NCBI RefSeq assembly: GCF_000425205.1
Contig: NZ_KE384328.1
Span: forward strand, 157,296-189,295
Direction of reading: 5' to 3'
DNA from: Pontibacillus halophilus JSM 076056 = DSM 19796
GTDB lineage: Bacteria > Bacillota > Bacilli > Bacillales > BH030062
DNA: 32,000 nt
In this document: positions 1,542-28,444 of the stretch, piece by piece
How the letters are laid out: each line of letters opens with the position of its first letter
How positions within the stretch are numbered: the stretch's first letter is position 1
Made by a program: the position numbers and the translations under genes
Notes under the pieces: generated by a model
What the model was told of the DNA's origin: nothing
The model's input: the letters and a program-made list of their open reading frames with translations, nothing else
Database searches by the model: none

Positions 1542-2053
1542 TGAAGCATTTACAAAATGAAAAAGGTGTAACCTTAGTTGAACTGTTGGCAGTTATGGCC
1601 ATGTCCATTCTGGTGGTAGGTGTCGCATACCAAATCTTATTCTCAATGTTTTCAAGTATTGATAAGTCACAGGCCAATACGATGCTTCGGAATGAGGCTG
1701 CGGCTATCATGCTTGAGTTGGATGAAATTATGTTAAATCTGGATGAAGTAGAGACAATTCCAATTGACCTTAACGTAAATGTTCCATTCGACCATTTCAG
1801 AGTATTAGACATAAGAGAGAATTCGTCTGGTTTACCTAAAACTCTTTCAACAGAAATAGAAGTTGCTAATGGTGAACTTCTAGTTACCTATAATGGGAGC
1901 AGTCGAACGATTACAGATTCAAGTATCAATGCCTCTAATACTACTTTTACCCTTGATAAAGACGGGCGACTTCGTGTCAATTTGCACATAGAGGACAATG
2001 CTTCTTCAGAAACATACACAGTATTTAAAATTTATGAAATGGAAAATGAGTGA
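1541..2053 (+). CDS. Prepilin-type N-terminal cleavage/methylation domain protein (minor pilin)
   Basis: Class III signal MKHLQNEKG|VTLVELLAVMAMSILV. Translationally coupled to the upstream pilin gene. Confidence 0.85.
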   Translation: MKHLQNEKGVTLVELLAVMAMSILVVGVAYQILFSMFSSIDKSQANTMLRNEAAAIMLELDEIMLNLDEVETIPIDLNVNVPFDHFRVLDIRENSSGLPKTLSTEIEVANGELLVTYNGSSRTITDSSINASNTTFTLDKDGRLRVNLHIEDNASSETYTVFKIYEMENE

Positions 2054-3854
2054 TGAGCATATGAAGCTTAAAGAACAAAGTGGTTATACGATGTTGGTTG
2101 TGCTTCTAGTGTTTACAATCATTAGTATTCTTGGTCTAGCTTTAATCGGGTTAACTGTAAATTCAACTACATCTGTAAGTGTCACCGAAACCAAAGTGAC
2201 TAGTATTAATTCAGCAGAAAGTGAATTGGATGAGACGTTGGCAGTAGTCCAAAATGAACTGGATAGAATTAATGAGAAAATCGATAAAAACAAGATTATT
2301 GATATTGATGGGGCAAAACTCGGATTATTGAATTTAATACAGGAATTAATTCGGGATAATCCTGACTATGAAATCACCTATGATTTTGACCTTCTCTCAG
2401 AAGGGATGTTGGCTGCCAACGTAACGATGAAAATACCAGTGGATAATTCGGATAAGGTGCTAGTAAAAGAAATTGAGTTCTCTACTATAGCGGATATCTT
2501 TAAATATAGTACAGTTACTCCAGGAAACTTAACCCTAAACGGTGCGAGTTATATTGAAGGGGATGTGTATGTAGGGGAGGATTTATATACAAGTAAGTCT
2601 GGAAAGTTCATTTCGGGATCTACTTTCTATCCAGAAACAACTTACCCCGCATTTACAAGAGGGGAATTGACCGTAGGGGGGGATTTCAAAGAACTGGAGT
2701 ACGTAAAGCGGAGAAGCTGTTGGTTCTTTAGTTGTTATTATTACTACGATGATGTTACTTCTACATTCAATCCAACAGATGAAAACTTGGAAAAGTACTT
2801 TAGCTTACCTCCAAAGGTTGAGAATCAACAAGAGATTGACACCTCGTTAAAGGTTCTAGAAGACTTTATCGAACCAGCAGAGGAAACAATAGAATCTCTG
2901 AGGTTCATTTCCAGTAGTTACAATCGATTTACTCATATTGTAAAGAATAATTTGAATGGTTTCGAGAACAACACTACATATGGAACAACGCTAGTCGATA
3001 AGGGTCTTACGATTGCTTCTGGAAGAACCACAGTTATTCATGGTGACCTAGTTGTGAACAATCGATTTTCTCTTAAGAATGCATCTAAACTAGTGGTTCA
3101 TGGTGATTTAATTGTTGAGAGTGACATGGAATTAACAAAAGGCGCTGAATTAGAAGTCACTGGAGATTTAAAGGTTACAGGAAATCTAGAGAGTGAGGAT
3201 AAAGACAATTCCCTTATTGTGAATGGATCTATGTTGGTTTCAGGTAATCTTAGTGTTAGTGGGTACTTTGAAGTTCAATCAGATGATGGGATTATCTTTG
3301 TTTATGGGGATGCTTTATTGTCGAATGTAAGTTTTACAGGGGAAATGTATTCGAATGATGATGTAGACTTAAGGGAAGAGGTTAGTGGTAACAGTACCAT
3401 TTATGCTAAAGACGATATAACAGTCAAGCAACTGTCTAGTGGAGAGTTAAATGGGACACTTGTCTTATTGGCGAACGGTGATATGCAGTTATCAAATAAC
3501 AATTTGTATGAAGATGCATCAAAAGTGATGAGAGTGTTCTTATACTCTAACAATAAATTGGAAATTTATGGTGTCGGTTCAAATATTGAGATAAGTGGCG
3601 GGATTTATGGAAGTGATATTATCCTGAATGCAGTGAAAGGGAAGACGTACGAAGGTATAAAGAGTTACAAAACCGGTTTCGACGCTTATGAAGGAAATAA
3701 TTACACCTATATTGAAAGAAACCAAGAGAGTATAACGCCTAAATTATCTCGGTTGAAGGTCATTTACAATAAAGATATGATTCTAAATCCTCCAAAAGGT
3801 ATCCCGACGGTCGAGAACATTAGCTTTAAAGAAGTAGATCGGTATTACGAATAA
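2046..3854 (+). CDS. Large PilX_N-type pilus-associated protein with a C-terminal beta-helix-like repeat region (candidate tip or adhesin subunit)
   Basis: The N-terminus ...EQSGYTMLVVLLVFTIISILGLALIGL resembles the PilX N-terminal hydrophobic segment and has no Glu at +5. A ~20-aa periodic repeat is present (VIHGDLVVNN.., VVHGDLIVES.., EVTGDLKVTG.., IVNGSMLVSG..). The start is ambiguous: in-frame ATGs at 2034, 2046 and 2061. Confidence 0.7.
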   Translation: MSDEHMKLKEQSGYTMLVVLLVFTIISILGLALIGLTVNSTTSVSVTETKVTSINSAESELDETLAVVQNELDRINEKIDKNKIIDIDGAKLGLLNLIQELIRDNPDYEITYDFDLLSEGMLAANVTMKIPVDNSDKVLVKEIEFSTIADIFKYSTVTPGNLTLNGASYIEGDVYVGEDLYTSKSGKFISGSTFYPETTYPAFTRGELTVGGDFKELEYVKRRSCWFFSCYYYYDDVTSTFNPTDENLEKYFSLPPKVENQQEIDTSLKVLEDFIEPAEETIESLRFISSSYNRFTHIVKNNLNGFENNTTYGTTLVDKGLTIASGRTTVIHGDLVVNNRFSLKNASKLVVHGDLIVESDMELTKGAELEVTGDLKVTGNLESEDKDNSLIVNGSMLVSGNLSVSGYFEVQSDDGIIFVYGDALLSNVSFTGEMYSNDDVDLREEVSGNSTIYAKDDITVKQLSSGELNGTLVLLANGDMQLSNNNLYEDASKVMRVFLYSNNKLEIYGVGSNIEISGGIYGSDIILNAVKGKTYEGIKSYKTGFDAYEGNNYTYIERNQESITPKLSRLKVIYNKDMILNPPKGIPTVENISFKEVDRYYE

Positions 3855-3886
3855 AGGTTGAAACGTTAAGTTTCAACCTTTCATTT
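3854..3886 (+). terminator. Rho-independent terminator after the minor-pilin operon
   Basis: The stem aaggttgaaac (3854-3864) pairs with gtttcaacctt (3870-3880) around the loop gttaa. A T-rich tail follows. Confidence 0.8.
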
Positions 3887-3921
3887 AATATATCTTTCCA
3901 ATACATACAGTTTATTATACA

Positions 3922-5742
3922 ATGATAGATAGTCGAAATATGCCAATAACATGGGAAAAATGTTGGAAATGGGGTGGGGGTTTGGAGAACATTGTACTCG
4001 CTTTTATAGCCTTGGGAATCGTGATTCTCTTTGTCTATTACTTTCCACTTGGACTTAGTAAATGGGGGAGAATTGTGTTAGCAGGCTCCTCTTTTTTTAT
4101 AGCCTTATTAGCAATTTTTGTAGGCATCAATCTAGTCTGGTGGCAAGCTGTACTCATTTTACTACTATTTGCATTATTAACATCAATTGTCCTTGACCGG
4201 CGTTTCAATGGTCTTGTTTTTGCTGATGGCGGTATGAGTTATAGGGAAGAAGACACAGAAGATATGCAGAATCAGTATCAACTTACATACACAGGCCCCA
4301 AGAACAACCAACAATTGGATGAAGTGTGGGAAGACGAGTCTGAGCTTCCAGAGTCGTATGCACCAGAGTCTGATCTGCTTGACGAAGATGAGCTGAAAGA
4401 GTGGGAAGAACAGCTCGAAACTGTCTCTGAGATGGACCAATCAGGTGATGACCTCGCTGATTCAGAAGAGTTGGTAGAATTCCGCGCGACTCCTTCCTCT
4501 GAAGAAGTTGGCATGGATTATCTACATGATTACGAGGAGTCTATTGATCAACCAGAGTCTGATCTACTCTCTTCGGAGCTGCTTAGTGAGGAAGAACAAA
4601 TGCTGTTAGAGCGTGAATCACTTATGGAAGAACCTACATTTAACGGGGAAGAAGAAATCATCCAAGAACACGATTCCATTGAACTACAATGGAGAGAAGA
4701 CCTCCTGAATGATGAAGACGTTCAGATTGGGGATTCAGAGCTAATTGAAGATGAGGCAGAACAGGTGCAAGTAGGGCGTGAAGTACTTGAGGAAATTGCT
4801 CCAACTGAGAACGTTGAGTCTCAACAAGAGCTTGAGCAGGAGGGAAATCTCCCTGAGTTTCCTGATTCTTCTATCGAATATGGACATGATTATGCCGAAG
4901 AAGAAAGAGAGTCAGAGGAGAACTGGTTTGATAAAGTGGCTAGAGAGCCGATTGAAGTAGAACCAGAAGAAAATAGTGTAGAGCTCATGCCAGAAGACAT
5001 CATTCAACCATCCATTGAGGAACCACTGGTAGAAGAAAGAATTGAGGAGAAACCTCTTGATGATCAGGAGAAGCACATCGAAGAAGAAGTTGTTTCTGAG
5101 GAGGCACATCGAGAGTCTGAAGAAAGTGGTCCCACAAACGATGACACCTTAGAACAAGAAGAATACCTTGAAGATACACAACCTCTCCCATCCGATGTAG
5201 AAGAAGACGTGGCGGCAAGCACAGATGACCTTGTCGAAGAAGAAGTAATCTTTGAGGAGTTCAAGGCAGACACAGAAGATGTGATCTCTTCTCAAGATAA
5301 TGTGAAAGAAACGGAAGTTACAATAGAGGATGAATCCCCTATAGAAGAGCCTAGCGAGGTGGTTCTTGATGAGCCAATTATCGATGAGGAACCTTCCGAG
5401 GTGACTAGTGAAGTTGAAGAAGATACTCCTCAAGAAGAGCAACCATTAAGAAGGACACCTCTACAAGAGCAGTTGTTCCATACAATGGTAGAGCAAATTC
5501 GACTTCAGGAACACTTGATGAATAGTGTGGAATACGAACAATACATCATGGACCATATTCAACCTTCACTTGACGACCAAGATTACTTCACGTTTAGTTA
5601 TTTGCTCATCCAGCATTATGTGAAGCACAATCACCAAGAAGCCTTGCGTGACTTCCTTTCTGACTTGGGTAACCGCTTTAACCAGAATACAGCTATAAAA
5701 GCTCAAGTAGAACTGATGCAACAACTATATGTCCATTCATAG
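3922..5742 (+). CDS. Hyper-acidic membrane-anchored protein of unknown function
   Basis: 606-aa ORF. About 3 N-terminal hydrophobic helices (IVLAFIALGIVILFVYYF, IVLAGSSFFIALLAIFVGI, WWQAVLILLLFALLTSIVL). These are followed by ~400 aa dominated by Glu/Asp, then a ~100-aa non-acidic helical C-terminal region. The start is uncertain (ATG 3922, ATG 3940 or TTG 3982) and none has a good SD. Confidence 0.65.
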   Translation: MIDSRNMPITWEKCWKWGGGLENIVLAFIALGIVILFVYYFPLGLSKWGRIVLAGSSFFIALLAIFVGINLVWWQAVLILLLFALLTSIVLDRRFNGLVFADGGMSYREEDTEDMQNQYQLTYTGPKNNQQLDEVWEDESELPESYAPESDLLDEDELKEWEEQLETVSEMDQSGDDLADSEELVEFRATPSSEEVGMDYLHDYEESIDQPESDLLSSELLSEEEQMLLERESLMEEPTFNGEEEIIQEHDSIELQWREDLLNDEDVQIGDSELIEDEAEQVQVGREVLEEIAPTENVESQQELEQEGNLPEFPDSSIEYGHDYAEEERESEENWFDKVAREPIEVEPEENSVELMPEDIIQPSIEEPLVEERIEEKPLDDQEKHIEEEVVSEEAHRESEESGPTNDDTLEQEEYLEDTQPLPSDVEEDVAASTDDLVEEEVIFEEFKADTEDVISSQDNVKETEVTIEDESPIEEPSEVVLDEPIIDEEPSEVTSEVEEDTPQEEQPLRRTPLQEQLFHTMVEQIRLQEHLMNSVEYEQYIMDHIQPSLDDQDYFTFSYLLIQHYVKHNHQEALRDFLSDLGNRFNQNTAIKAQVELMQQLYVHS

Positions 5743-7909: not shown

Positions 7910-7940
7910 TAAATGACGGTGAATGAAAGTAGGGGAATGT

Positions 7941-9569
7941 ATGGCGGTAAAGCGAAAGCGACTAGGTGACTTGTTGAAAGAGGCGGACTTGATTACCGAA
8001 TCAGAAATCGAGACGGCGTTGCAATCAAAGAAAGAAGGGCAGAAGCTTGGCGATGTTCTGCTCGAGAAAGGTTACATAACTGAACAACAATTAATTGAAG
8101 TACTCGAAGTCCAGTTGGACATCCCTCGCATCTCACTCTATCGTTACCCAATCGACCCAACTATTATTAATATTGTGGACAAAGAGTTTGCCCAGCGCAA
8201 TATGGTCATTCCTATAAATAAAGAGGGGGATGTTCTGACCGTTGCGATGAATGACCCGATGGATTATTTTGCTATAGATGATTTGAAGATTTCAACAGGG
8301 TTCCAAGTGACTCCTGTAATTGCAACGAAAGATGAAATCATCCAAGCCATTAACAAACATTACAATATTAAAGATGAAGACTTAGATGTCGAGGTTTCAG
8401 ATGATCCAGAAGATGCCCCAATTGTGCGGTTAATGAACCAGATTCTCCAAACAGGCATCCAGTTAAAAGCAAGCGATATCCATATGGACCCTCAAGAAGA
8501 TAAGGTGTTCGTACGTTACAGAATTGATGGTGTACTCCGTACAGAACGATCATTACCTAAGAACTTTCAACGTTCATTGACAGCACGGGTAAAGATTATG
8601 GCCAACTTAAATATTACTGAATCTCGCCTTCCTCAAGATGGGCGGATTAAGACAACTGTTGATATGAAGCCGGTAGATTTACGAATATCTACACTTCCGA
8701 CTGTTTATGGAGAGAAGATTGTAATTCGTATTCTCGACTTAGGTCAGGCTATGAATGGTTTAGACGACTTAGGGTTTAATAAAGTGAATCAGAAGAAATT
8801 GATGAATTTAATTGAGCAGCCTTCCGGATTAGTCTTAATTACAGGGCCAACGGGTTCAGGTAAGTCGTCCACCCTTTACGCCTCTTTGAATCATTTGAAT
8901 ACAGAGGATGTAAACATTATTACGATTGAGGATCCGGTGGAATATCAGCTGGAAGGAATTAATCAAGTGCAAGTGAACAACCAAGTGGGGTTAACGTTTG
9001 CCAGAGGCCTTCGATCTGTGCTCCGTCAAGACCCGAATATCGTCATGGTCGGGGAAATACGAGATTCTGAGACAGCAGAAATTGCAATACGAGCTTCGTT
9101 AACAGGGCACCTTGTTTTCAGCACCCTTCATACGAACAGTGCGATTTCAACGATTCCAAGGCTTTTCGACATGGATATCGAGCCTTATCTAGTTGTTTCC
9201 TCTGTAACGGGTATCATTGCACAACGACTTGTGCGAAAGATTTGTCGTGACTGCAAAACAGCCTATGAACCCACCGAAATGGAACGGAAACATTTTGTGA
9301 AGCGAGGCATTCAAGTTCAAACTGTCTACAGAGGTCAAGGGTGTAACAGTTGCCAACACACAGGATACAGAGGGCGGATGGCAATACAAGAGTTACTTGT
9401 TATTGATGATGAAATTCGTAAGCTATTAATGAACAACCACTCCATAAGTGATATCCATCACTATGCATTCAAGAATGGGATGATCTTTCTAATTGACGAC
9501 GGATTGTTGAAAGTAAAGCAAGGAAGGACGACAACTGAAGAAGTGCTGCGAGTAGCAAAATCTGACTAG
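7941..9569 (+). CDS. pilB: Type IV pilus assembly (extension) ATPase PilB, GspE family
   Basis: T2SSE N-terminal domain, Walker A GPTGSGKSS, His box GHLVFSTLHTN, and the tetracysteine CRDC...CNSC typical of PilB/GspE. The ATG at 7941 (MAVKRKRLGDLL) is preferred over the 7923 start in the ORF track. Confidence 0.95.
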   Translation: MAVKRKRLGDLLKEADLITESEIETALQSKKEGQKLGDVLLEKGYITEQQLIEVLEVQLDIPRISLYRYPIDPTIINIVDKEFAQRNMVIPINKEGDVLTVAMNDPMDYFAIDDLKISTGFQVTPVIATKDEIIQAINKHYNIKDEDLDVEVSDDPEDAPIVRLMNQILQTGIQLKASDIHMDPQEDKVFVRYRIDGVLRTERSLPKNFQRSLTARVKIMANLNITESRLPQDGRIKTTVDMKPVDLRISTLPTVYGEKIVIRILDLGQAMNGLDDLGFNKVNQKKLMNLIEQPSGLVLITGPTGSGKSSTLYASLNHLNTEDVNIITIEDPVEYQLEGINQVQVNNQVGLTFARGLRSVLRQDPNIVMVGEIRDSETAEIAIRASLTGHLVFSTLHTNSAISTIPRLFDMDIEPYLVVSSVTGIIAQRLVRKICRDCKTAYEPTEMERKHFVKRGIQVQTVYRGQGCNSCQHTGYRGRMAIQELLVIDDEIRKLLMNNHSISDIHHYAFKNGMIFLIDDGLLKVKQGRTTTEEVLRVAKSD

Positions 9570-9582
9570 GGAGCATGTGTAT

Positions 9583-10626
9583 ATGCAAGAGAGATTTGAC
9601 CATCTACTAAAATCCGCGTTTGAACTAAAGGCGTCGGATATCCACTTAACGGTCGGTGTGCCGCCAATCTTTCGAGTTCACGGGGACCTGAAGCAATATG
9701 GGAAGAACAAACTCCTGCCGGATGACACAGAAGGAATGTGTCGAGCGGTGTTATCTGATGTGTTGTATGAACAATTTAAATCGAAGGGTGAGGTGGATTT
9801 TTCTTACGGGATTCCAGGCGTTTCTCGCTTTCGAATCAACGCCTACCATCAACGTAATTGCGTATCGTTGGCTGTGAGGATTGTACCAACCTCAATTCCT
9901 TCTCTTGAGGACTTGCAGTTACCAGAAACATTAAAGCAAATTGCTGAGAAGCCCCAAGGTCTTGTGCTTGTCACCGGGCCAACAGGAAGTGGGAAATCGA
10001 CTTCACTTGCTTCCATGATTGATTACATGAATCGAACGATGCGGAGACACATTATTACCCTCGAAGACCCAATCGAGTATCTACACTCACACCGTTATTC
10101 AGTAATTGACCAACGTGAAATAGGGTTTGATACAGAGAACTTTGCAAATGGATTGCGAGCTTGTTTGCGGCAGGACCCAGATGTCATTCTAGTTGGCGAG
10201 ATGAGAGATTTAGAGACCATCTCTACAGCTATTACAGCAGCAGAAACGGGGCACCTTGTTTTAGGAACGTTACATACGACAGATGCCGCTTCAACTATTG
10301 ATCGAATCATTGATGTATTCCCGCCAAGCCAGCAACCGCAAGTGCGGATTCAACTTGCAAGTGTACTACAGGGCATCGTGTCGCAACGACTATTCCAACG
10401 TGCAGATAAAGCCGGACGTCGAGCGGCTACAGAGATTCTTCTCAATACATCAGCTGTAAAAAACCTCATACGTAATGAAAAGATTCATCAAATACCAAAT
10501 GTCATGCAAACATCGCGTTCTCAAGGGATGCATACGCTTGAGATGTCTGTGCGCGCACTATTAGAACAAAACATTATTACCAAGGAAATAGCCTCCCCTT
10601 ACTTAAGTGCAGAAAGAGGAATGTAA
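9583..10626 (+). CDS. pilT: Type IV pilus retraction (twitching motility) ATPase PilT
   Basis: About 348 aa. Walker A GPTGSGKST, Walker B ILVGEMRD, TGHLVLGTLHT, and a PilT-type AVKNLIRNEKIHQI motif. RBS GGGAG lies 9 nt before the ATG at 9583. Confidence 0.93.
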   Translation: MQERFDHLLKSAFELKASDIHLTVGVPPIFRVHGDLKQYGKNKLLPDDTEGMCRAVLSDVLYEQFKSKGEVDFSYGIPGVSRFRINAYHQRNCVSLAVRIVPTSIPSLEDLQLPETLKQIAEKPQGLVLVTGPTGSGKSTSLASMIDYMNRTMRRHIITLEDPIEYLHSHRYSVIDQREIGFDTENFANGLRACLRQDPDVILVGEMRDLETISTAITAAETGHLVLGTLHTTDAASTIDRIIDVFPPSQQPQVRIQLASVLQGIVSQRLFQRADKAGRRAATEILLNTSAVKNLIRNEKIHQIPNVMQTSRSQGMHTLEMSVRALLEQNIITKEIASPYLSAERGM

Positions 10627-11835
10627 ATGGCATACTTTAAGTACAAAGGTAGAACAGGTAGAGGACAAGTAAGACAAGGACGCGTAAAAGCAGGTACAAA
10701 GAAAGAAGCCATTGAAACGCTGAAAGGACAAGGAATCGCCCTCTCGCAAATTCAAGAGGTTAACAGCATTCTATATAAGGATATTACGATCGGAAGTCCT
10801 GTTAAGCCGAAGGAGTTTGTTATCTATTTAAGGCAATTCTCAACGTTGATTGAGGCAGGAGTTTCTTTGCTTCAATCAAATATGATCCTCTCGAAACAAA
10901 CGTCTAGTAAAGGGTTGCAACAAGCCTTAGCGGATATCACCCAACGCTTGGAAAGTGGGCAAGCGTTCTCAGACGCTGCTGAAAGTCACCGCAAAATCTT
11001 CCCTCCTCTCTTTATCAATATGGTTCGAGCGGGAGAAGCTGGGGGTAATCTAGATGAAATTCTAGACCGAATGGCTGTCTATTACGAGAAGCAATATGAA
11101 ACCCGTCAAAAGGTCATATCCGCTTTGACTTATCCACTTGTTGTAGGGGTAATTGCCATTGGTATTGTCATCTTCTTGCTAAGTTTCGTAGTACCTCGTT
11201 TTACTGATATGTTCGCTTCTATGGGGGGCGAGCTGCCACTTATCACTCAGTTCGTTATTGGTCTAGGAGAATTCTTCAAAGTGTACTGGTGGCTATTCTT
11301 ACTCGTTCCTCTTGTGTCAATTGTTGCATTTAAATATGTTCAGCAGAACAACGAACGCTTTGCTTATTCGGTTGATCTGCTGAAGTTGCGTATGCCGATC
11401 TTTGGTCCACTGATGCAAAAGGCTGCTCTCGTTCGTATGACCCGGTCGCTTAGTTCGTTGTTTCATAGTTCTGTCCCCATACTACAGTCCGTTGAAATCA
11501 CTGAAAAAATCGTAGAAAACCGAGTGATTGAAAAGGTCTTGAAGCAATCTAGAACTTCACTCGCGCGTGGAGAGTCAATGACAGGGCCATTTTCGCATCA
11601 TTGGATTTTCCCACCACTCGTTACACAAATGATTTCAGTAGGAGAAGAAACAGGTTCATTAGACCATATGCTAGGCAAAGTAGCAGATTTCTACGATTCT
11701 GAACTGAACCATACGACCGACCGATTAAAGACACTCATTGAGCCCATCATGATTGCTGTATTAGCAGTGATTGTTGGGACTATAGTCGCATCTATTGCGA
11801 TTCCGATGTTCTCTCTATTCGAACAAATTAATTAA
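10627..11835 (+). CDS. pilC: Type IV pilus platform protein PilC (GspF family)
   Basis: 402 aa with two T2SSF-type repeats and 3-4 TM segments. The ATG directly abuts the pilT stop (TAAATG). Confidence 0.93.
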   Translation: MAYFKYKGRTGRGQVRQGRVKAGTKKEAIETLKGQGIALSQIQEVNSILYKDITIGSPVKPKEFVIYLRQFSTLIEAGVSLLQSNMILSKQTSSKGLQQALADITQRLESGQAFSDAAESHRKIFPPLFINMVRAGEAGGNLDEILDRMAVYYEKQYETRQKVISALTYPLVVGVIAIGIVIFLLSFVVPRFTDMFASMGGELPLITQFVIGLGEFFKVYWWLFLLVPLVSIVAFKYVQQNNERFAYSVDLLKLRMPIFGPLMQKAALVRMTRSLSSLFHSSVPILQSVEITEKIVENRVIEKVLKQSRTSLARGESMTGPFSHHWIFPPLVTQMISVGEETGSLDHMLGKVADFYDSELNHTTDRLKTLIEPIMIAVLAVIVGTIVASIAIPMFSLFEQIN

Positions 11836-11869
11836 ATGTGAAGAATGTGCAAATTTAACCAATTAAGTG

Positions 11870-11898
11870 TAGATTTTTACCTATCATTTAACTATAAT
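11870..11898 (+). promoter_or_regulatory. Candidate sigma-A promoter for the pilA leader
   Basis: Perfect -10 TATAAT at 11893-11898. The -35 is weak (tagatt, 11870-11875) at 17-nt spacing. This would place the transcription start near 11905, just upstream of the putative aptamer. Confidence 0.35.
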
Positions 11899-11904
11899 AA
11901 ACAT

Positions 11905-12008
11905 AGATTAAGAGAACCGATAGAACATAACGAACGGAAGCGATAAAGGACTATCTGTATATGGGCACTTGGGTAGTCTGGAGCGAGTAGTGCAACCGAC
12001 CAGAATCT
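11905..12008 (+). promoter_or_regulatory. Candidate c-di-GMP-II riboswitch aptamer in the pilA 5' leader
   Basis: GGGCACUUG (11963-11971) and AGUAGUGCAACCGACC (11986-12001) match my recollection of the conserved core of the c-di-GMP-II class. GCACU (11965-11969) can pair with AGUGC (11988-11992). An upstream hairpin gata/tatc (11942-45 with 11952-55) has a GG-containing loop positioned for a pseudoknot with the CC of AACCGACC. P1 could not be drawn confidently. Confidence 0.65.
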
Positions 12009-12046
12009 GACCTGCTTATCTTCTAATTTTGGTCGGTTCTTTTATA
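11994..12046 (+). terminator. Intrinsic terminator / expression platform overlapping the aptamer 3' strand
   Basis: 13-bp stem: aaccgaccagaat (11994-12006) pairs with attttggtcggtt (12026-12038), with one G-U pair. The loop is 19 nt, followed by cuuuuau. The 5' arm is the conserved AACCGACC segment of the aptamer. Confidence 0.7.
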
Positions 12047-12076
12047 ACTAAACAATTCTCAAAAGGAGAGAGATGC

Positions 12077-12526
12077 ATGATTAAGCGTATGAAACAGTTG
12101 TTGAAAGACAACAAGGGTTTTACACTAGTGGAATTATTAGCAGTTATTGTCATCCTTGGAATTATCGCAGCGATTGCAATCCCGGCTATTGGAAGCATTA
12201 TTAATAATACGGAAGAAGAAGCTCATACTTCGAATGCGTTGAGTATTTTAGATGCTGGTAGAATGGCATTTGCTGCTGACCTTCCGGATGGTGGAGATGA
12301 TCAATACACAATAACTGAATTGGTTGAAGGAGGATTCTTAGAAGAAGCTCCAGTTAACCCTGAAACTGATGAAGTTTATGATCAGGGGGCTAGCTTTGTT
12401 ACAGTTACCCAAGATGATGATAACGGTAACGTGACTTATACAGTAACGTTGGCTGGAGTCGATGGTATGACAGACCAAAGCCGTGCAGACTTAACTGGCA
12501 GCGAAGATGATAACGATACCGAATAA
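12077..12526 (+). CDS. pilA: Type IV major pilin (PilA-like prepilin)
   Basis: RBS AAAGGAGAG lies 6 nt before the ATG at 12077. Class III signal ...KDNKG|FTLVELLAVIVILGIIAAIAIPA. Small (149 aa), no Cys, acidic C-terminal tail. The 12029 start in the ORF track would lie inside the terminator. Confidence 0.9.
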   Translation: MIKRMKQLLKDNKGFTLVELLAVIVILGIIAAIAIPAIGSIINNTEEEAHTSNALSILDAGRMAFAADLPDGGDDQYTITELVEGGFLEEAPVNPETDEVYDQGASFVTVTQDDDNGNVTYTVTLAGVDGMTDQSRADLTGSEDDNDTE

Positions 12527-12538
12527 TTAAACACAAGG

Positions 12539-12569
12539 CAAATCCCTCCTCAGCGAGGGATTTCTTTTT
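12539..12569 (+). terminator. Rho-independent terminator after pilA
   Basis: aaatccctc (12540-12548) pairs with gagggattt (12555-12563) around the loop ctcagc, followed by cttttt. Confidence 0.85.
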
Positions 12570-12838: not shown

Positions 12839-13597
12839 ATGCTTTCTACTATACTAACGGTCTACCTTTTCTTCATCGGCCTTGCGCTCGGGTCCTTTTA
12901 CAACGTCGTTGGCCTCCGTGTACCAAAAGGGGAGTCAGTCATAAAGGGCCGTTCACATTGTACGACTTGTAACCGTACGCTCAAAGCGTCTGAATTGGTT
13001 CCAGTTGTATCCTACCTTCTGCAACGTGGAGCGTGTAAGGGGTGTGGGAGTCGAATTCGTCCTCTCTATCCTGTTACTGAACTTTCCACTGGCTTGTTGT
13101 TTGCCGTAAGCTATCTTTCCTTTGGTTTATCAGGGGAGTTTTTTGTTGCCGTGATTTTTATTTCGCTTTTTGCGATTATTTTCGTTTCTGATATGGCCTA
13201 TATGATTATCCCGGATAAGGTGCTCCTTTTCTTCTTGCCACTCCTTCTTGCAGCTCGTGTCTATACACCCCTGACCCCTTGGTATGATTCACTGATCGGG
13301 GCTGTGGTTGGCTTTTTATTGTTGTTCGTCATTATCATGGCAAGTCGAGGAGGGATGGGAGCTGGTGATATGAAGTTATTTGGTGTCATTGGCCTTGTTC
13401 TCGGGTGGAAATTAACCCTTCTTGCGTTTTTTTTGTCTACATTATATGGGACAATAGGAAGTATAAGTTTATTAGCATTCAGAATAATAGATCGAAAGAA
13501 TCCAATTCCATTCGGTCCTTACATCATCCTTGGGTCACTTACGTCTTATTTCATCGGTGATGAGTTACTTGGATGGTACTTGGATTGGTTCCTATAA
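12839..13597 (+). CDS. pilD: Prepilin peptidase (A24 family; PilD/ComC-type)
   Basis: N-terminal 4-Cys region (HCTTCN...CKGCGS). Catalytic Asp motifs FVSDMAYMIIPD and GAGDMKLFG. Polytopic membrane protein. Confidence 0.93.
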   Translation: MLSTILTVYLFFIGLALGSFYNVVGLRVPKGESVIKGRSHCTTCNRTLKASELVPVVSYLLQRGACKGCGSRIRPLYPVTELSTGLLFAVSYLSFGLSGEFFVAVIFISLFAIIFVSDMAYMIIPDKVLLFFLPLLLAARVYTPLTPWYDSLIGAVVGFLLLFVIIMASRGGMGAGDMKLFGVIGLVLGWKLTLLAFFLSTLYGTIGSISLLAFRIIDRKNPIPFGPYIILGSLTSYFIGDELLGWYLDWFL

Positions 13598-13611
13598 GGG
13601 GGAACGGAAAT

Positions 13612-14595
13612 ATGAGTTTGTTAACGTGGAAATCTTCGAAGCAGCGAGTAGTCATGGTGATTAAAGATCATGTATTGCGTTTTCTACATGCAGATGGACC
13701 AGAGCTTGAACAGATAAAGTTTATTGGTGAGCGCCGCTTGCCGCGAGGGATTGTACAGGATGGGAAGATTCTAGATGCTCTTTCTTTATCTTCTATCGTA
13801 GAGGAACTGGTAGAGCTTTATGATTGGAAGCGGAAGAAATTGTATTTCTGTGTGCCAGATACCGCTGTTGTAATCCGACCATACACAGTTCCTGCAGATT
13901 TAAAAGAAGATGAGATTAAAGGGTATTTGTATATGCGGCTTGAGGATAATTTGCATCTCCCATTTGAGAATCCGACATTTGATTATCACATTGTGGAAGA
14001 AGGAGACACGGAGAGGCAGCTGTTGCTGTTTGCTTATCCTGATGATCAAGTCAAAGCGTATGAATACATATACAAAGATGCGAAGTTAAAGCCGTTAAAG
14101 GCAGACTTATCTTCTTTGTCACTTTATCGACTTTATTACGAATTAGACCGGGCGCAAGGCGATGACCATTTGTTGTCGATTCAGTGGTACGTTGATGCGT
14201 GTGTCCTAACGGTCTATCATAACCATCGACCTAGATTTATCCGACATATGAAGTCTTCATTAGATATGGAGCAATGGAATTTCCATCAAGAGTCCTCTAT
14301 CTACCATTCGGTCTGGAGTGGGGACCCTGAGGTGTATGAAGCGTTTATTGATGACCAACTCACAGAAATTGAGCGTATTATGGATTTCTATCGTTACTCT
14401 GTGACACAAGGAGAAGCCGGCATTACAAAGATTCTATTAACGGGCGACCTGCCGAACATGGACGTGCTACGGTCTCAAATGCAAGAGCGATTCCAGCAGC
14501 CAGTAGAGGGAATTAAGCAAGAGTTTATGACTAAAGAAGAAGAAGTCATTCCGACTGCATTCACAGATGTAATTGGCTTGGCTCTGAAGTCTTAA
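13612..14595 (+). CDS. pilM: Type IV pilus assembly protein PilM (actin-like fold)
   Basis: RBS AAGGGGGA lies before the ATG at 13612. About 327 aa and cytoplasmic. It sits directly upstream of the PilN- and PilO-like bitopic proteins. Sequence similarity is weak, so the call relies mostly on size and order. Confidence 0.75.
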   Translation: MSLLTWKSSKQRVVMVIKDHVLRFLHADGPELEQIKFIGERRLPRGIVQDGKILDALSLSSIVEELVELYDWKRKKLYFCVPDTAVVIRPYTVPADLKEDEIKGYLYMRLEDNLHLPFENPTFDYHIVEEGDTERQLLLFAYPDDQVKAYEYIYKDAKLKPLKADLSSLSLYRLYYELDRAQGDDHLLSIQWYVDACVLTVYHNHRPRFIRHMKSSLDMEQWNFHQESSIYHSVWSGDPEVYEAFIDDQLTEIERIMDFYRYSVTQGEAGITKILLTGDLPNMDVLRSQMQERFQQPVEGIKQEFMTKEEEVIPTAFTDVIGLALKS

Positions 14596-14611: not shown

Positions 14612-15229
14612 ATGATGGTGGATATTAACTTTCTTGAAGAAAAAGAAAAGCCAAATATAGCGCCCTATCTTCTTATAGCAGTTGGCGTATTGGTACTCGG
14701 ACTTGCCTTACTTTTCATTACTTTCGAGAAGAATAGTTTGATAGCCGAAGATAACCAAATCCAAGAGGATATTGTTCAAATAAAAGACCAACAGACTCTT
14801 CTAACAAGGGATACCTTAACAGATGTACAGAAGTCACGAAATGAACTGAAGGACACGGTGTCAGAACTAAACCAAGTACTCATCCCTTCTGTACCTGTCT
14901 TGAAAGATATGATTTCTCTCTTGCCAGAACGAGGGTTCTTTCTAGAATACCAATTCCAGAAGCCAAATGTACTCACGATGCAAGTTCGCTTTGATGGTAT
15001 GCAGGATGTGGCAAGCTATACAAATGCACTCACGACGAAATCATATACTGAGGATGTCCAGGTGACGACAATTGATACAACGGCTGTTGAGGAAGGGGAC
15101 TATTTCGAAACTCTGCCTCGATATGTTGCGGAATTTGAGATGTTACTTAATCCAGTTGCGTCTAGAGCGTTGCTCCAAGTAGAAGAGGAGACAGACGTGG
15201 AAGAGGAGGCTGATGAAGGTGAGAATTGA
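14612..15229 (+). CDS. pilN: PilN-like pilus assembly protein
   Basis: Starts MMVDINFLEEKEK (the INLL-like PilN N-terminal motif), followed by a single TM (YLLIAVGVLVLGLALLFI) and a coiled-coil segment. Acidic C-terminus. Confidence 0.75.
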   Translation: MMVDINFLEEKEKPNIAPYLLIAVGVLVLGLALLFITFEKNSLIAEDNQIQEDIVQIKDQQTLLTRDTLTDVQKSRNELKDTVSELNQVLIPSVPVLKDMISLLPERGFFLEYQFQKPNVLTMQVRFDGMQDVASYTNALTTKSYTEDVQVTTIDTTAVEEGDYFETLPRYVAEFEMLLNPVASRALLQVEEETDVEEEADEGEN

Positions 15230-16142
15230 TTGGAAACGAGTACATACACTTTATCTCATCATCATCGTGCTCCTCGGAATTGCGACATTCGTTGTAGGGC
15301 GTTCATTTATCCTTCAACCTATAAAGGATGATATCGAAACTTCAATCGGAACACTCCAGAGCGAAAAGCAGATCTTACGTACAATGGAGGATAAGGTGAA
15401 GGATGATGTCGACATATCGCTTCAGACGTCGAAAGAGCTTCAACGCGTTGTTCCGGTACTTCCAGTTACGGATCAGCTCTTAATTGGTATGGAACGAGCG
15501 GAGAATGTATCTGGAAGTTTTATTCGAACGTATGATCACGCTGGTGATAACGAACTAATGGCTGAAGACTTTGATCTTATTGAAGACCAACAAAATGAGG
15601 AGCAATCGAGTGAAGATGACGTTGACTTAGAAGAGAGTAATAGCAACGCTATAAAGGAACCAAGTGAAGGAGAGCCTGTCTCACGAGGAAGCGTCCTTGA
15701 TGGGGTTCACGAAGCAACATTTACGTTGAAGGTGCTGTCTCCAAGTTTTGTTGAGCTCATGTCATTTCTAGAGGAACTTCAAAGATTACCACGACTTGTT
15801 AGTATTGATGCGATTACATTTGAAGCGCAGGATGTCGTCACGGAGGAGAATCCTCTAGAATACGAGGTTACGTTATCTGCTTTCTATGTACCTAGCTTAG
15901 TAGCTCTACAACCTGAACTTCCACAATATCACTACGCCTCTCCAGCAGGTAAAGAAAATCCGCTTCCGGTTGGGGCAGATGTACCTGTTGGGAACACGTC
16001 AACTGATGATGAAAATGAAGAAGAGGATGAAGATCGTGAGATTGAACGTCCCCCATCTGATAATGAAGACCAATCGAATGATGAAGGGGATTCAGATGGG
16101 AATAGTAATGACTCCGATGAAGATATAGAAGAACTTTCTTAA
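15213..16142 (+). CDS. pilO: PilO-like pilus assembly protein with a long acidic C-terminal tail
   Basis: Bitopic protein: TM LYLIIIVLLGIATFVVG, then a coiled coil and an alpha/beta core. It overlaps pilN by 17 nt. The last ~48 aa are almost entirely D, E, N and S. The start could instead be GTG at 15219. Confidence 0.7.
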   Translation: MKVRIDWKRVHTLYLIIIVLLGIATFVVGRSFILQPIKDDIETSIGTLQSEKQILRTMEDKVKDDVDISLQTSKELQRVVPVLPVTDQLLIGMERAENVSGSFIRTYDHAGDNELMAEDFDLIEDQQNEEQSSEDDVDLEESNSNAIKEPSEGEPVSRGSVLDGVHEATFTLKVLSPSFVELMSFLEELQRLPRLVSIDAITFEAQDVVTEENPLEYEVTLSAFYVPSLVALQPELPQYHYASPAGKENPLPVGADVPVGNTSTDDENEEEDEDREIERPPSDNEDQSNDEGDSDGNSNDSDEDIEELS

Positions 16143-25348: not shown

Positions 25349-26195
25349 AGTATTTCACATTCATCCGCTTATGTGGTTCATCGTTGCGGTAGCATTGATG
25401 ACCGGTTCCTTTGCGCAGTTAGTCGTCATCTTTTCAATTGTATTTATTCATGAATTGGGCCATTACGGAATGGCTCTTTTTTTTCGGTGGCGTATTCAAT
25501 CGGTTATGCTTTGGCCTTTCGGTGGGGTCATGAAAACAGACGAACATCACTCGCGACCTTTCAAGGAGGAGCTGTTCGTCGTACTTAGTGGTCCTCTTCA
25601 ACATGTATGGATGTATGGGGTTATCGCTTTACTTGGTGTGTTCCAAGTGTTTACGGATTCATTGATTCAAGCTATGTATACCTACAATACAGTCATCCTT
25701 TTGTTCAACCTTCTCCCAATATGGCCGTTGGATGGAGGGAAACTATTTTTCTTAGTGCTTTCATATCTGAAGCCATTTCCGAAAGCTCAACAGGATGTTC
25801 TAGTCTGTTCCTTGTTCACATTAGTGACGGCTTTAGCCTTGTGTACATTTGTGTTTCCGTTTACGTTAAATCTTGTTCTCCTCATTGCTTTTCTCATGTG
25901 GGAAAATTGGATAGAATGGAAACAACGCCATTACGGGTTTTTGCGGTATTTATTGCGGCGACATGAAGAACGGGCAGAACGGGTGAAAGGAATAGAGCCA
26001 TTGTATGTCCCATTTGATATGACGCTCACTGAAATCTTCCAGAAATTCCGGCGTGGCATGCGACACCAAATCTATGTCACAACGTCTGATGGGAATCGCG
26101 TCATGCTTGATGAGAATGAATGCATGTATGCCTATTTCACATTAAAACGTTCTCAGGCGAAAGCATCGGATCTTGTTCAATGGTTTGGGACTTAG
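25335..26195 (+). CDS. spoIVFB: Stage IV sporulation pro-sigma-K processing metalloprotease SpoIVFB (M50 site-2 protease)
   Basis: HELGH (FIHELGHYGMA) and NLLPIWPLDGG motifs. Multi-TM with a C-terminal CBS-like region. ATG at 25335. Confidence 0.9.
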   Translation: MNNLKVFHIHPLMWFIVAVALMTGSFAQLVVIFSIVFIHELGHYGMALFFRWRIQSVMLWPFGGVMKTDEHHSRPFKEELFVVLSGPLQHVWMYGVIALLGVFQVFTDSLIQAMYTYNTVILLFNLLPIWPLDGGKLFFLVLSYLKPFPKAQQDVLVCSLFTLVTALALCTFVFPFTLNLVLLIAFLMWENWIEWKQRHYGFLRYLLRRHEERAERVKGIEPLYVPFDMTLTEIFQKFRRGMRHQIYVTTSDGNRVMLDENECMYAYFTLKRSQAKASDLVQWFGT

Positions 26196-26227
26196 AACGT
26201 ATTTATCGACATAAAGGAAGTAGAGAT

Positions 26228-27673
26228 ATGAAGCACATGTATATACACACCCTTGCCACAGAGAAGTGGGCAGTGGTAACAGAAGGGCGAGACATTGTAG
26301 ACCTCGTTGTAGAGCGTCCTTCAAAAGCGAGTCTTGTAGGAAACATTTATCAGGCTCGGGTCATTAACGTTGAGAAAAGTTTGGACGCTGGGTTCGTAGA
26401 TTATGGGGAAGAGAAGTTTGGGTTCTTAAAGCGCACTGAGATTCCAGAAGCTCGGCAACATGGACTACCCATTGAAAAGGCTGTTCATGAAGGTCAAGCT
26501 CTGTGGGTCCAAGTAACAAAAGATGCGTATGATTCAAAAGGCGCTCAAGTCACAGCTAATGTGACTTTACCTGGGCGCAATATGGTCTATCTTCCGTTTG
26601 GGGGATATGTAGCCATGTCTAGAAAGTTTCAGCAAGAAGAGCGCGAACAGCTTACATCTATCTTTAATGAGAAGTTGGGCGATGGAGAAGGACTTATTGT
26701 ACGTACCTCTGCGAAAGATAGAGACGAAGATGCGCTGTTAAATGAGTTACAACAACTGAGGAAGGATTGGGAGGAGATTACTTCTACTCCTAACAAGAAG
26801 CCTCCATTTATCGTGTACGAGGATAACGAAATTCCAAACCGCTTATTGAGCAGGTATCGCCCTGAGGAGATAGAAGGAATCTTCGTAGATGAAGCGGAAA
26901 TAAAGCAAGCTATTGTGAGCAAGTATTCTGAATTTCCAACACCAGTACTTCAAAGTGAATTAGAAGCATCGTTGCCAATCTCATTTACGGCTATTCGTGA
27001 ACGGATTGTCCAACGGAATGTTCCGTTGAAGAATGGGGCAGAGCTTATCATTGACCGCACCGAAGCGATGACCGTCATGGATGTGAATACGGCGAAGCGG
27101 ACAAAGACGGCTCACAAGGGGATGAACACACTTGAGACGAACCGTCTTGCTGCTACAGAAGCGGCCCGCCAAATTCGTCTTAGAAATCTATCTGGTATTA
27201 TCGTCATTGATTTCATTGATATGAAGAATGAACAAGAGCGGGCACAAGTTATCCATACCATGAAACAGGAGTTGAGAAAGGATCGAATTCGTACGGAGGT
27301 GTATGGGTTTACAAGGCTCGGTATATTAGAGTTAACTAGGAAGCGAGAGTCTGTATCATTGCCCCTTCTCTTTCTCGAAGAATGGAATTCAACTGTTTCA
27401 GCAGAGTCCCATGCGTATGATTGGGAGCGAGAATTATGGTCGTATCGCCGCAACGACCAAGATGTGATGTTGTATGAAGCGCGCCCTGATGTAGTTGAAG
27501 CATTTCACAATTCCATAGACTTAAAAAAATTACAATCTCATCTTTACAAAGAAGTCTATGTACTGAATAATAGGGAAAGTGATGTTCCATATCGAATCCG
27601 CTATGTGGGCAATAAAGACAGCATGAAAGAACGTCCGTTTTACAGCGATTCCGCTGTTGACAGGATGTTATGA
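26228..27673 (+). CDS. rng: Ribonuclease E/G family protein (RNase G-like)
   Basis: ATG at 26228 follows AAAGGAAG. S1 domain ([24 protein letters not shown]) and the catalytic-core pattern [10 protein letters not shown]...IVIDFIDM. About 481 aa. Confidence 0.88.
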
Positions 27674-27691: not shown

Positions 27692-27794
27692 GTTATGTCT
27701 CGTAGCACCAAGTGCTACAACCGCTCAAAACAGGTCTTTAAGTCCTTCGGGGCACCTGCATGGCGAGTCTGAGTGCAAGAGGAGGTGCAAGTAT
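27692..27794 (+). promoter_or_regulatory. L21-leader-like structured 5' UTR
   Basis: Hairpin gtagcac-caa-gtgctac (27702-18). A C(UUCG)G tetraloop hairpin lies at 27744-51 inside cagg../..cctg. GCACCU (27752-57) is complementary to the SD region AGGUGC (27783-88). The position matches the ribosomal-protein L21 leader described in Bacilli. Confidence 0.45.
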
Positions 27795-28114: not shown

Positions 28115-28444
28115 ATGATTGAAGTTACATTTACTCGCAAAGAAAATTCCATTGTAGCTTTCGAGCTTAGTGGACATGCAGAGAGTGGTCCTTATGGTTA
28201 CGATCTAGTCTGCGCTGCTGTGTCTGCTGTTTCTTTTGGAACAGTGAACGCCATCGTAGAACTATGTGAATTTGAACCTATTATTGAGCAGGGAGGAGAA
28301 GGTGGATACCTTCTGGTAGAACTACCGAAATACCTTACTGCCACTACTCAAGAAAAGGCTCAAACCTTAATTGAGGGAATGTGGGTTTCATTGCGAACAA
28401 TTGAACGTGACTATGGACAATATATTACCATCTCTTCAAAATAA
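28115..28444 (+). CDS. prp: Ribosomal-processing cysteine protease Prp (YsxB)
   Basis: [22 protein letters not shown] carries the His/Cys dyad context. It lies between rplU and rpmA. Confidence 0.93.

Follow-up and report, generated by a model that had tools for sequence, protein, structure and literature searches.

The type IV pilus cluster of Pontibacillus halophilus JSM 076056 = DSM 19796 raises the question of what controls transcription of pilA, the gene for the major pilin, and whether the spacer between pilC and pilA holds an RNA element responding to c-di-GMP (cyclic diguanosine monophosphate), as an earlier note on this DNA had proposed. We analysed a window of 32,000 nucleotides (nt) that includes this spacer (contig NZ_KE384328.1, positions 157,296 to 189,295), whose sequence is that of assembly GCA_000775595.1, contig AVPE01000002.1. 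Positions below are counted from the first letter of the window, and all window features named here lie on the plus strand. The pilC stop codon ends at 11835 and the pilA ATG stands at 12077, which makes the spacer 241 nt long, not 240 as given in the note, and the strings quoted from it are both there, GGGCACUUG at 11963-11971 and AGUAGUGCAACCGACC at 11986-12001. Our results point to a class II c-di-GMP riboswitch that probably acts as a transcriptional ON switch for P. halophilus pilA. They also raise the possibility that this copy is less responsive than its relatives, having an A at an otherwise invariant kink-turn G and a weak helix P1.

The aptamer and terminator in the pilC-pilA spacer

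When the whole window was scanned with Rfam cmscan, RF01786 (c-di-GMP-II) matched at 11928-12010, spanning the full model (positions 1-84) with a score of 60.3 bits (gathering score 53.5; E = 3e-11), and the database test put forward in the earlier note thus came out in favour of its proposal. When 11800-12100 was scanned permissively (E values to 10), RF01786 was the only family reported; neither c-di-GMP-I, which had been named as the control, nor any other Rfam family was found there, and one weaker match, which overlapped and came from another family in Rfam clan CL00127, was suppressed. The window aptamer scored 79.8 bits with R1, a covariance model of our own that was built from 12 spacer sequences (alignment A1).

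The Rfam consensus places the top of P1 at GG 11936-37, pairing with CC 12000-01. According to the Rfam alignment, helix P2 (11940-11984, with the pairs G11940-C11984 and C11941-G11983) encloses a kink-turn, in which the bulged strand GAU-AA-A (11942-47) lies opposite GGA (11980-82), and the P3 hairpin (11948-11979), in which 11948-55 pair with 11972-79 around the loop UGUAUAUGGGCACUUG. This loop is identical to the conserved loop of the family, UGUAUnUGGGCACuU, as seen in the Rfam alignment and in metagenomic aptamers. The GCACU/AGUGC helix described in the earlier note was found as well, 11965-69 being complementary to 11989-93; the pairing is not drawn in the displayed nested Rfam consensus, and we take it to be the family pseudoknot of the crystal structure. 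Between CGGAAGC and GGGCAC the window aligns with the Rfam model without insertions or deletions, which makes the spacing from CGGAAxC to GGGCAC, to which the note had drawn attention, that of the family consensus. A second pseudoknot suggested there, between a GG loop and the CC of AACCGACC, was not confirmed as worded: it is CC 12000-01 that pairs with GG 11936-37 in the Rfam consensus, and CC 11996-97 is unpaired in the nested model. Since the GG and CC columns are invariant, covariation cannot test this idea.

A further 83 metagenomic aptamers were gathered with a pattern that constrained only the 3' half of the aptamer. In these 83 aptamers the columns of the pocket strand are 98-100% conserved, and the window strand GUGCAACCG (11990-11998) agrees with all of them. 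The window matches 26 of the 27 columns conserved to at least 90% in this independent set, including all of UGGGCAC and GUGCAACCG. On metagenomic contigs, c-di-GMP-II aptamers also occurred in groups, with four on the 12.6 kilobases of L097 (6257-6343, 6680-6765, 6891-6966 and 11171-11257) and a tandem pair on L152 (4396-4612).

The 3' strand of the aptamer runs directly into a terminator. Folding gave a hairpin at 11994-12038 with the 5' arm AACCGACCAGAAU (11994-12006), a loop of 19 nt (12007-12025) and the 3' arm AUUUUGGUCGGUU (12026-12038), the two arms pairing perfectly over 13 base pairs (bp) at -17.6 kcal/mol; nascent RNA that stops at 12038 has this hairpin as its fold of lowest energy, and the U-tract CUUUUAU follows at 12039-12045. 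The 13-bp stem and U-tract reported earlier were thereby recovered with exact arms. A terminator scan that admits only loops of 3-8 nt missed this hairpin. The first eight bases of its 5' arm are at the same time the pocket and P1 strand of the aptamer, so that the folded aptamer and the terminator are mutually exclusive, and ON-switch logic, as inferred in the earlier note, follows from this sharing. We regard it as confirmed on comparative grounds that the element in the pilC-pilA spacer is a genuine class II c-di-GMP aptamer joined to a terminator.

Ahead of the aptamer lies a putative promoter (11870-11898) composed of a -35-like TAGATT (11870-75), a 17-nt spacer and the -10 hexamer TATAAT (11893-98), from which transcription is predicted to start near A11905. 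A consensus scan in which the -35 element must match at least four of six positions did not call this promoter, the match here being three of six. A -10-like hexamer is found 15-37 nt ahead of the aptamer GG in every related locus, and the Terribacillus loci likewise have TAGATT, a 16-nt spacer and TATAAT. No terminator was detected between pilC and the aptamer by the consensus terminator scan, so transcripts reading through from pilC would also meet the switch.

From this layout we infer ligand binding as well as the direction and size of the regulation. Transcription would begin at the dedicated promoter or possibly arrive from pilC. In RNA free of c-di-GMP, AACCGACCAGAAU would pair with 12026-12038 and transcription would stop at the U-tract (12040-45), leaving an RNA of about 140 nt. 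With c-di-GMP bound, the AACCGACCAGAAU strand would be held in the pocket formed by the GCACU/AGUGC pseudoknot and the pairing of GG 11936-37 with CC 12000-01. With that strand captured, the terminator could not form and RNA polymerase would continue into pilA. High c-di-GMP would then mean more pilin, and a possible source of the ligand is the GAF-GGDEF enzyme encoded in the cluster.

Distribution and covariation in related loci

Relatives were collected by a PilC-anchored scan of one genome per species, which yielded 80 loci. R1 located the aptamer in 19 Bacillaceae loci, roughly 70-170 nt behind the pilC stop; they belong to Pontibacillus marinus, Halobacillus (two), Halalkalibacter (two), Terribacillus (six), Cytobacillus (two) and Peribacillus (three), with one further locus labelled Paenibacillus sp. 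FJAT-29882 (L007) and one from a Bacillaceae metagenome-assembled genome (MAG). Five more Pontibacillus loci, from P. chungwhensis, P. salipaludis, sp. ALD_SL1, CP126446 and a marinus-like Logan contig, carry it too, which brings the total to 24 other Bacillaceae loci with the aptamer behind pilC, in at least eight named genera. One Clostridium locus (L032) has the aptamer elsewhere in its pil cluster. All 13 relatives that were tested exceeded the RF01786 gathering score, at 60.1-78 bits.

Among the PilC-anchored loci, the aptamer was absent from P. yanchengensis, Bacillus suaedaesalsae, Oceanobacillus, Lysinibacillus, Sporosarcina, Kurthia and others. The pilC-pilA spacer of P. yanchengensis (L002, 5207-5408) is unrelated in sequence and without the aptamer. 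P. salicampi and a related Logan contig (L203 and L204, 2710-2790) have a VWA-domain protein of about 1,220 amino acids (aa) behind pilC instead of a pilin. The riboswitch is not fixed within Pontibacillus.

The related sequences supported the helices by covariation, which the earlier note had named as a way in which its proposal could fail. Changes on both sides were seen at all eight P3 pairs, and this helix was 97-99% paired (99% on the MAFFT alignment). On the same MAFFT alignment the whole structure was 88% paired, against 26-45% when the partners were slid, and the 20-sequence and 84-sequence model-fitted alignments agreed with this result. P1 is the weakest helix in the relatives (74-76% paired). 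The pseudoknot was paired in 100% of 20 loci and invariant in all except the Clostridium sp. MAG L032 (1280-1366), where it is doubly compensated (GGGUACC / GGUAC); this is the only pseudoknot covariation in the set, and because the columns are otherwise invariant, covariation support for the pseudoknot is thin. The open reading frame (ORF) behind the L032 aptamer resembles a prepilin peptidase, as judged by eye from its translated start.

The overlap of aptamer and terminator recurs among the relatives. In 14 of the 20 loci, CCG(G/A)CC or the 3' strand of P1 contains the start of a hairpin that has a U-run behind it, and the stem sequences are unrelated to one another. We take this recurrence as strongly favouring the ON-switch reading for the whole group. 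In the six Terribacillus loci a competing hairpin is present and a U-tract is missing. There (L018, L019, L022, L023, L024 and L026, at about 5354-5420), the hairpin CCGGCCAU/AUGGCCGG behind the aptamer competes with GUUUCC/GGAAAC, and the pilA leaders have no U-tract ahead of the ribosome-binding site, so that the output mechanism of these loci is not a classical terminator.

The kink-turn base, the leader and rival explanations

Several observations weigh against a fully working switch in P. halophilus, and one of them concerns the kink-turn. The window reads GAUAAA in the kink-turn strand where the Rfam consensus is gaUGAa, so that position 1b is A11945; the bulge GAU, the A at 2b (11946) and the GA at 2n/1n (11981-82) are retained. 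Position 1b is G in 104 of 104 other aptamers examined: in all 80 metagenomic aptamers with a residue there, in 19 of 19 PilC-linked relatives and in the five further Pontibacillus loci (5/5). The column of A11945 is also the sole mismatch among the 27 conserved columns. The same base stands in the NCBI assembly and in the separately built Logan assembly of run SRR896434, which may rest on the same reads. In a standard kink-turn, G.A and A.G pairs follow the 3-nt bulge; the G.A pair at 1b belongs to the core of the motif, and an A.A pair would stand in its place here. In published work, loss of the bond from G N2 to A N7 (by changing G to inosine) in either G.A pair blocked ion-induced folding of an isolated kink-turn, and disruption of the 1b.1n pair abolished S-adenosylmethionine (SAM) binding in the SAM-I riboswitch (PMC4316175). 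A11945 could weaken or disable ligand sensing; its effect, which is not predictable from sequence, may lie anywhere between mild retuning and loss of function. In Halobacillus salinus (L003, at about 5340), it is the 2n position of the kink-turn that has changed, to U (UUA, not GGA/UGA), a sort of change at 2n that the ribosomal Kt-23 also exhibits. The comparison shows that, in this family, 2n apparently tolerates change and 1b does not.

The remaining points concern P1 and the energetics of the leader. The P1 pairs of the window are mostly non-canonical or unpaired in the Rfam alignment, and the helix can be drawn only as the 2 bp of GG/CC together with the 5 bp of AGAUU (11905-09) and AAUCU (12004-08), separated by a 26-nt bulge on the 5' side. 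The region as a whole folds no more stably than shuffled sequence (z = -0.87), and the terminator has a large loop (19 nt) and only four consecutive U. Moreover, the minimum-energy fold of the full leader, at -34.8 kcal/mol against -33.1 kcal/mol for the best fold containing the terminator, uses a long-range helix described below. With A11945 and the poor P1, the ligand responsiveness of this copy appears less certain than its family assignment.

Within the 5' leader (11905-11927), the segment UAAGAGAACCGAU at 11909-21, a part of the P1 bulge, is complementary to 12032-44, that is, to the terminator 3' arm and U-tract, over 13 bp at -18.0 kcal/mol, a pairing equalled by 0.2%-0.6% of shuffled leaders or genomic segments. 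When the aptamer core was enforced, this long-range helix was the predicted fold of the read-through RNA. As a pre-emptive antiterminator it is unlikely, since six of its 13 pairs need the U-tract and the nascent RNA to 12038 folds as the terminator. A fold combining the distal part of P1 with the long-range helix was rejected, its crossing pairs being topologically invalid.

Two explanations of the long leader were also discarded. It is not an insertion peculiar to the window, because the P. chungwhensis clade, P. marinus and Halobacillus have about 26-28 nt as well; the leaders of Terribacillus and Halalkalibacter are short. Nor does the 26-nt bulge appear to be a duplication of the terminator 5' arm, since an alignment as good as that of AACCGA-TAGAA with AACCGACCAGAA is also reached by 10% of shuffled sequences and by 5% of the 26-mers of the genome.

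In the P. chungwhensis clade (L205-L208), leader nt 1-12 AGAUGAUUACAC, at the predicted 5' end, are complementary to the clade's own terminator 3' arm GUGUGGUCGUUU over 12 bp, which 0.6-3.4% of shuffles equalled; both the segment and the arm differ from those of the window. Leader-terminator complementarity was not significant in 12 of 14 loci, with nothing comparable in the P. marinus type. We therefore rejected it as a general feature of pilA switches, since only the window and the P. chungwhensis clade show it, L005 being marginal. That two lineages have it, each with sequences of its own, suggests that it locks the ligand-bound state or forms a helix stabilising the 5' end; drawn post hoc from folding predictions, this may serve as a lead. 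It is conceivable, though doubtful, that the Pontibacillus version is a three-strand platform in which, after the aptamer has taken up the terminator 5' arm, the helix of leader and terminator 3' arm with its U-tract locks read-through and closes the 5' end of the mRNA, and which is functional despite the A at 1b.

The points above would also fit an impaired or decaying switch, that is, a true family member whose c-di-GMP sensing has been lost or much weakened, and whose terminator is either a constitutive attenuator or is bypassed, independently of the ligand, by the 11909-21 pairing. Such decay has a real, if minor, chance of being correct. It would explain why A11945 departs from a base kept even in six other Pontibacillus loci, and it agrees with an Rfam score near the bottom of the range of the relatives and with an element that is dispensable in the genus, being absent from P. 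yanchengensis, while in P. salicampi the locus is rearranged. The long-range fold, whose energy equals or slightly betters that of the terminator fold, also speaks for it. However, decay should bring more than one lesion, and the other 26 conserved columns are intact, with P3 and the pseudoknot perfect; the long-range helix, needing the U-tract for part of its pairs, cannot easily precede the termination decision. Further, a G-to-A change at 2n, chemically equivalent to that at 1b, is tolerated inside the SAM-I riboswitch, where tertiary contacts hold the kink (PMC4316175). We continue to favour a working ON switch.

It is very improbable that the aptamer is a variant recognising some other ligand, such as another cyclic dinucleotide. 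Class I c-di-GMP aptamers are known to have changed their specificity (PMC5473149), and the suppressed match came from a family of the same Rfam clan; however, that match scored lower, the canonical RF01786 model scored best, GUGCAACCG and UGGGCAC are consensus, and the deviant base lies in the kink-turn and not in the pocket. An OFF switch, or control at translation rather than termination, is equally hard to credit. The Terribacillus homologues without a U-tract indicate that termination control is not universal in the pilA-associated group, but in the window the strand common to aptamer and terminator makes binding and termination mutually exclusive. In addition, the ribosome-binding site GGAGAG (12065-12070) lies 20 nt past the U-tract and took part in no alternative pairing in our folding, so control would be transcriptional. 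Chance resemblance in an AT-rich spacer without any RNA element, for which only the unremarkable free energy of the region could be cited, is refuted by the comparative data, namely the E value and a position kept in 24 related loci with compensatory changes.

Gene neighbourhood and known pilus switches

The switch sits in the middle of the pilus cluster, with pilB-pilT-pilC upstream and pilA-pilD-pilM downstream. The pilA gene (12077-12526) encodes a major type IV pilin of 149 aa (Pfam N_methyl, 36.2 bits), whose translation starts with the leader MIKRMKQLLKDNKG followed by FTLVELLAV, with the cleavage site G|FTLVE. Behind it, the terminator scan found a terminator-like hairpin of 9 bp followed by CTTTTT (12540-12563), so that the switch would mainly gate a short pilin transcription unit. 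The other genes assigned by Pfam are pilT (9577-10626), pilC of the T2SSF family (10627-11835), pilD (12839-13597) and pilM (13573-14595).

Two proteins of the cluster touch on c-di-GMP itself. At the cluster head, a GAF-GGDEF protein truncated by the window edge (1-978; Pfam GGDEF 143.5 bits, GAF_2 44.5 bits) is a candidate local source of c-di-GMP; in its translation the GGEEF motif is intact, and no obvious RxxD I-site was seen just upstream of that motif. Two minor-pilin-like genes (987-1541 and 1541-2053) follow directly downstream. The pilB gene (7923-9569) encodes an ATPase with an MshEN domain (Pfam T2SSE 451 bits, MshEN 77.4 bits). Its N-terminus (window 7923-8100) has two repeats, RLGDLLKEADLITESEIETALQ (RLGDLL...) and KLGDVLLEKGYITEQQLIEVLEVQ (KLGDVLL...), which we take to resemble the c-di-GMP-binding MshEN motif. 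If these repeats bind c-di-GMP, the ligand would act on the pilin supply and on the assembly ATPase alike.

Elsewhere in the cluster, the stretch from the minor pilins to the genes with PRC-barrel and VanW/G5 domains (1998-5742) holds two large ORFs of 618 and 606 aa, and two ORFs after pilM (14612-16142) occupy the positions expected for pilN and pilO; these four ORFs had no Pfam match. Further downstream, a ribosomal protein L21 leader (RF00559) was found at 27709-27780 with 54.8 bits against a gathering score of 36. It lies just behind an RNase E/G-family gene (26120-27673) and ahead of the Prp protease gene (28115-28444) and obg, an ordinary placement for the mreBCD-minCD...obg region of Bacillaceae.

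The c-di-GMP-II riboswitch family was reportedly described by Lee et al. in 2010. With it the P. halophilus element shares the P2/kink-turn/P3 layout, the P3 loop, the pseudoknot complementarity and the pocket strand GUGCAACCG. It differs in the A at kink-turn position 1b, where the family has an invariant G, in a P1 that is broken by the 26-nt bulge on the 5' side, and in an A at 11999 (CCGACC) for the usual G, a feature common to the P. chungwhensis clade.

A class II switch before a pilin gene is known from Clostridioides difficile, where we presume the switch upstream of the pilA1 operon CD3513-03 to be Cdi2_4. The pilA1 switch and that of P. halophilus are of the same aptamer class, and both regulate a gene for a type IV major pilin. 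According to the summary in PMC11477304, which cites Bordeleau et al. 2015, the class II switches of C. difficile are transcriptional ON switches and one of them precedes the pilin operon CD3513-03, in agreement with what the earlier note had stated. The predicted logic is also alike, with c-di-GMP blocking an intrinsic terminator and pilin being made at high c-di-GMP, whereas the C. difficile switch stands at the head of its cluster and the P. halophilus switch inside, between pilC and pilA. P. halophilus also differs in lineage, as a halophile of the Bacillaceae and not a clostridium.

Compared with the other pilC-pilA switches of Bacillaceae (Pontibacillus, Halobacillus, Halalkalibacter, Terribacillus, Cytobacillus and Peribacillus), the P. 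halophilus switch has the same position behind pilC, the -10-like hexamer ahead and the same aptamer, whose 3' strand doubles as the terminator arm in most loci. The others all keep the kink-turn G, in contrast to the A of the window, and leader-terminator complementarity is found only in the window and the P. chungwhensis clade. Our literature search found no paper on Bacillaceae pilus riboswitches. The mechanism itself is not new, being that of a known switch type which the standard Rfam model finds in every relative tested; what is new is a group of switches that is experimentally uncharacterised.

The c-di-GMP control of Gram-positive type IV pili has been worked out mainly in C. difficile. 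The same RNA solution is now seen at the pilC-pilA junction in eight or more named genera of Bacillaceae that are mostly aerobic and often halophilic. The P. halophilus cluster suggests a compact module in which c-di-GMP is made and is sensed by an RNA that sets how much pilin is supplied and, possibly, by the assembly ATPase too. Within this module, A11945 amounts to a natural experiment. If the copy still binds its ligand, it would show to what extent tertiary contacts are able to make up for a faulty kink-turn, and should the three-strand platform be real, P. halophilus would be a functional natural exception to the near-universal 1b.1n G.A rule. If the copy does not bind, it would represent riboswitch decay in progress, in a genus where the element has also been lost outright, as in P. 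yanchengensis.

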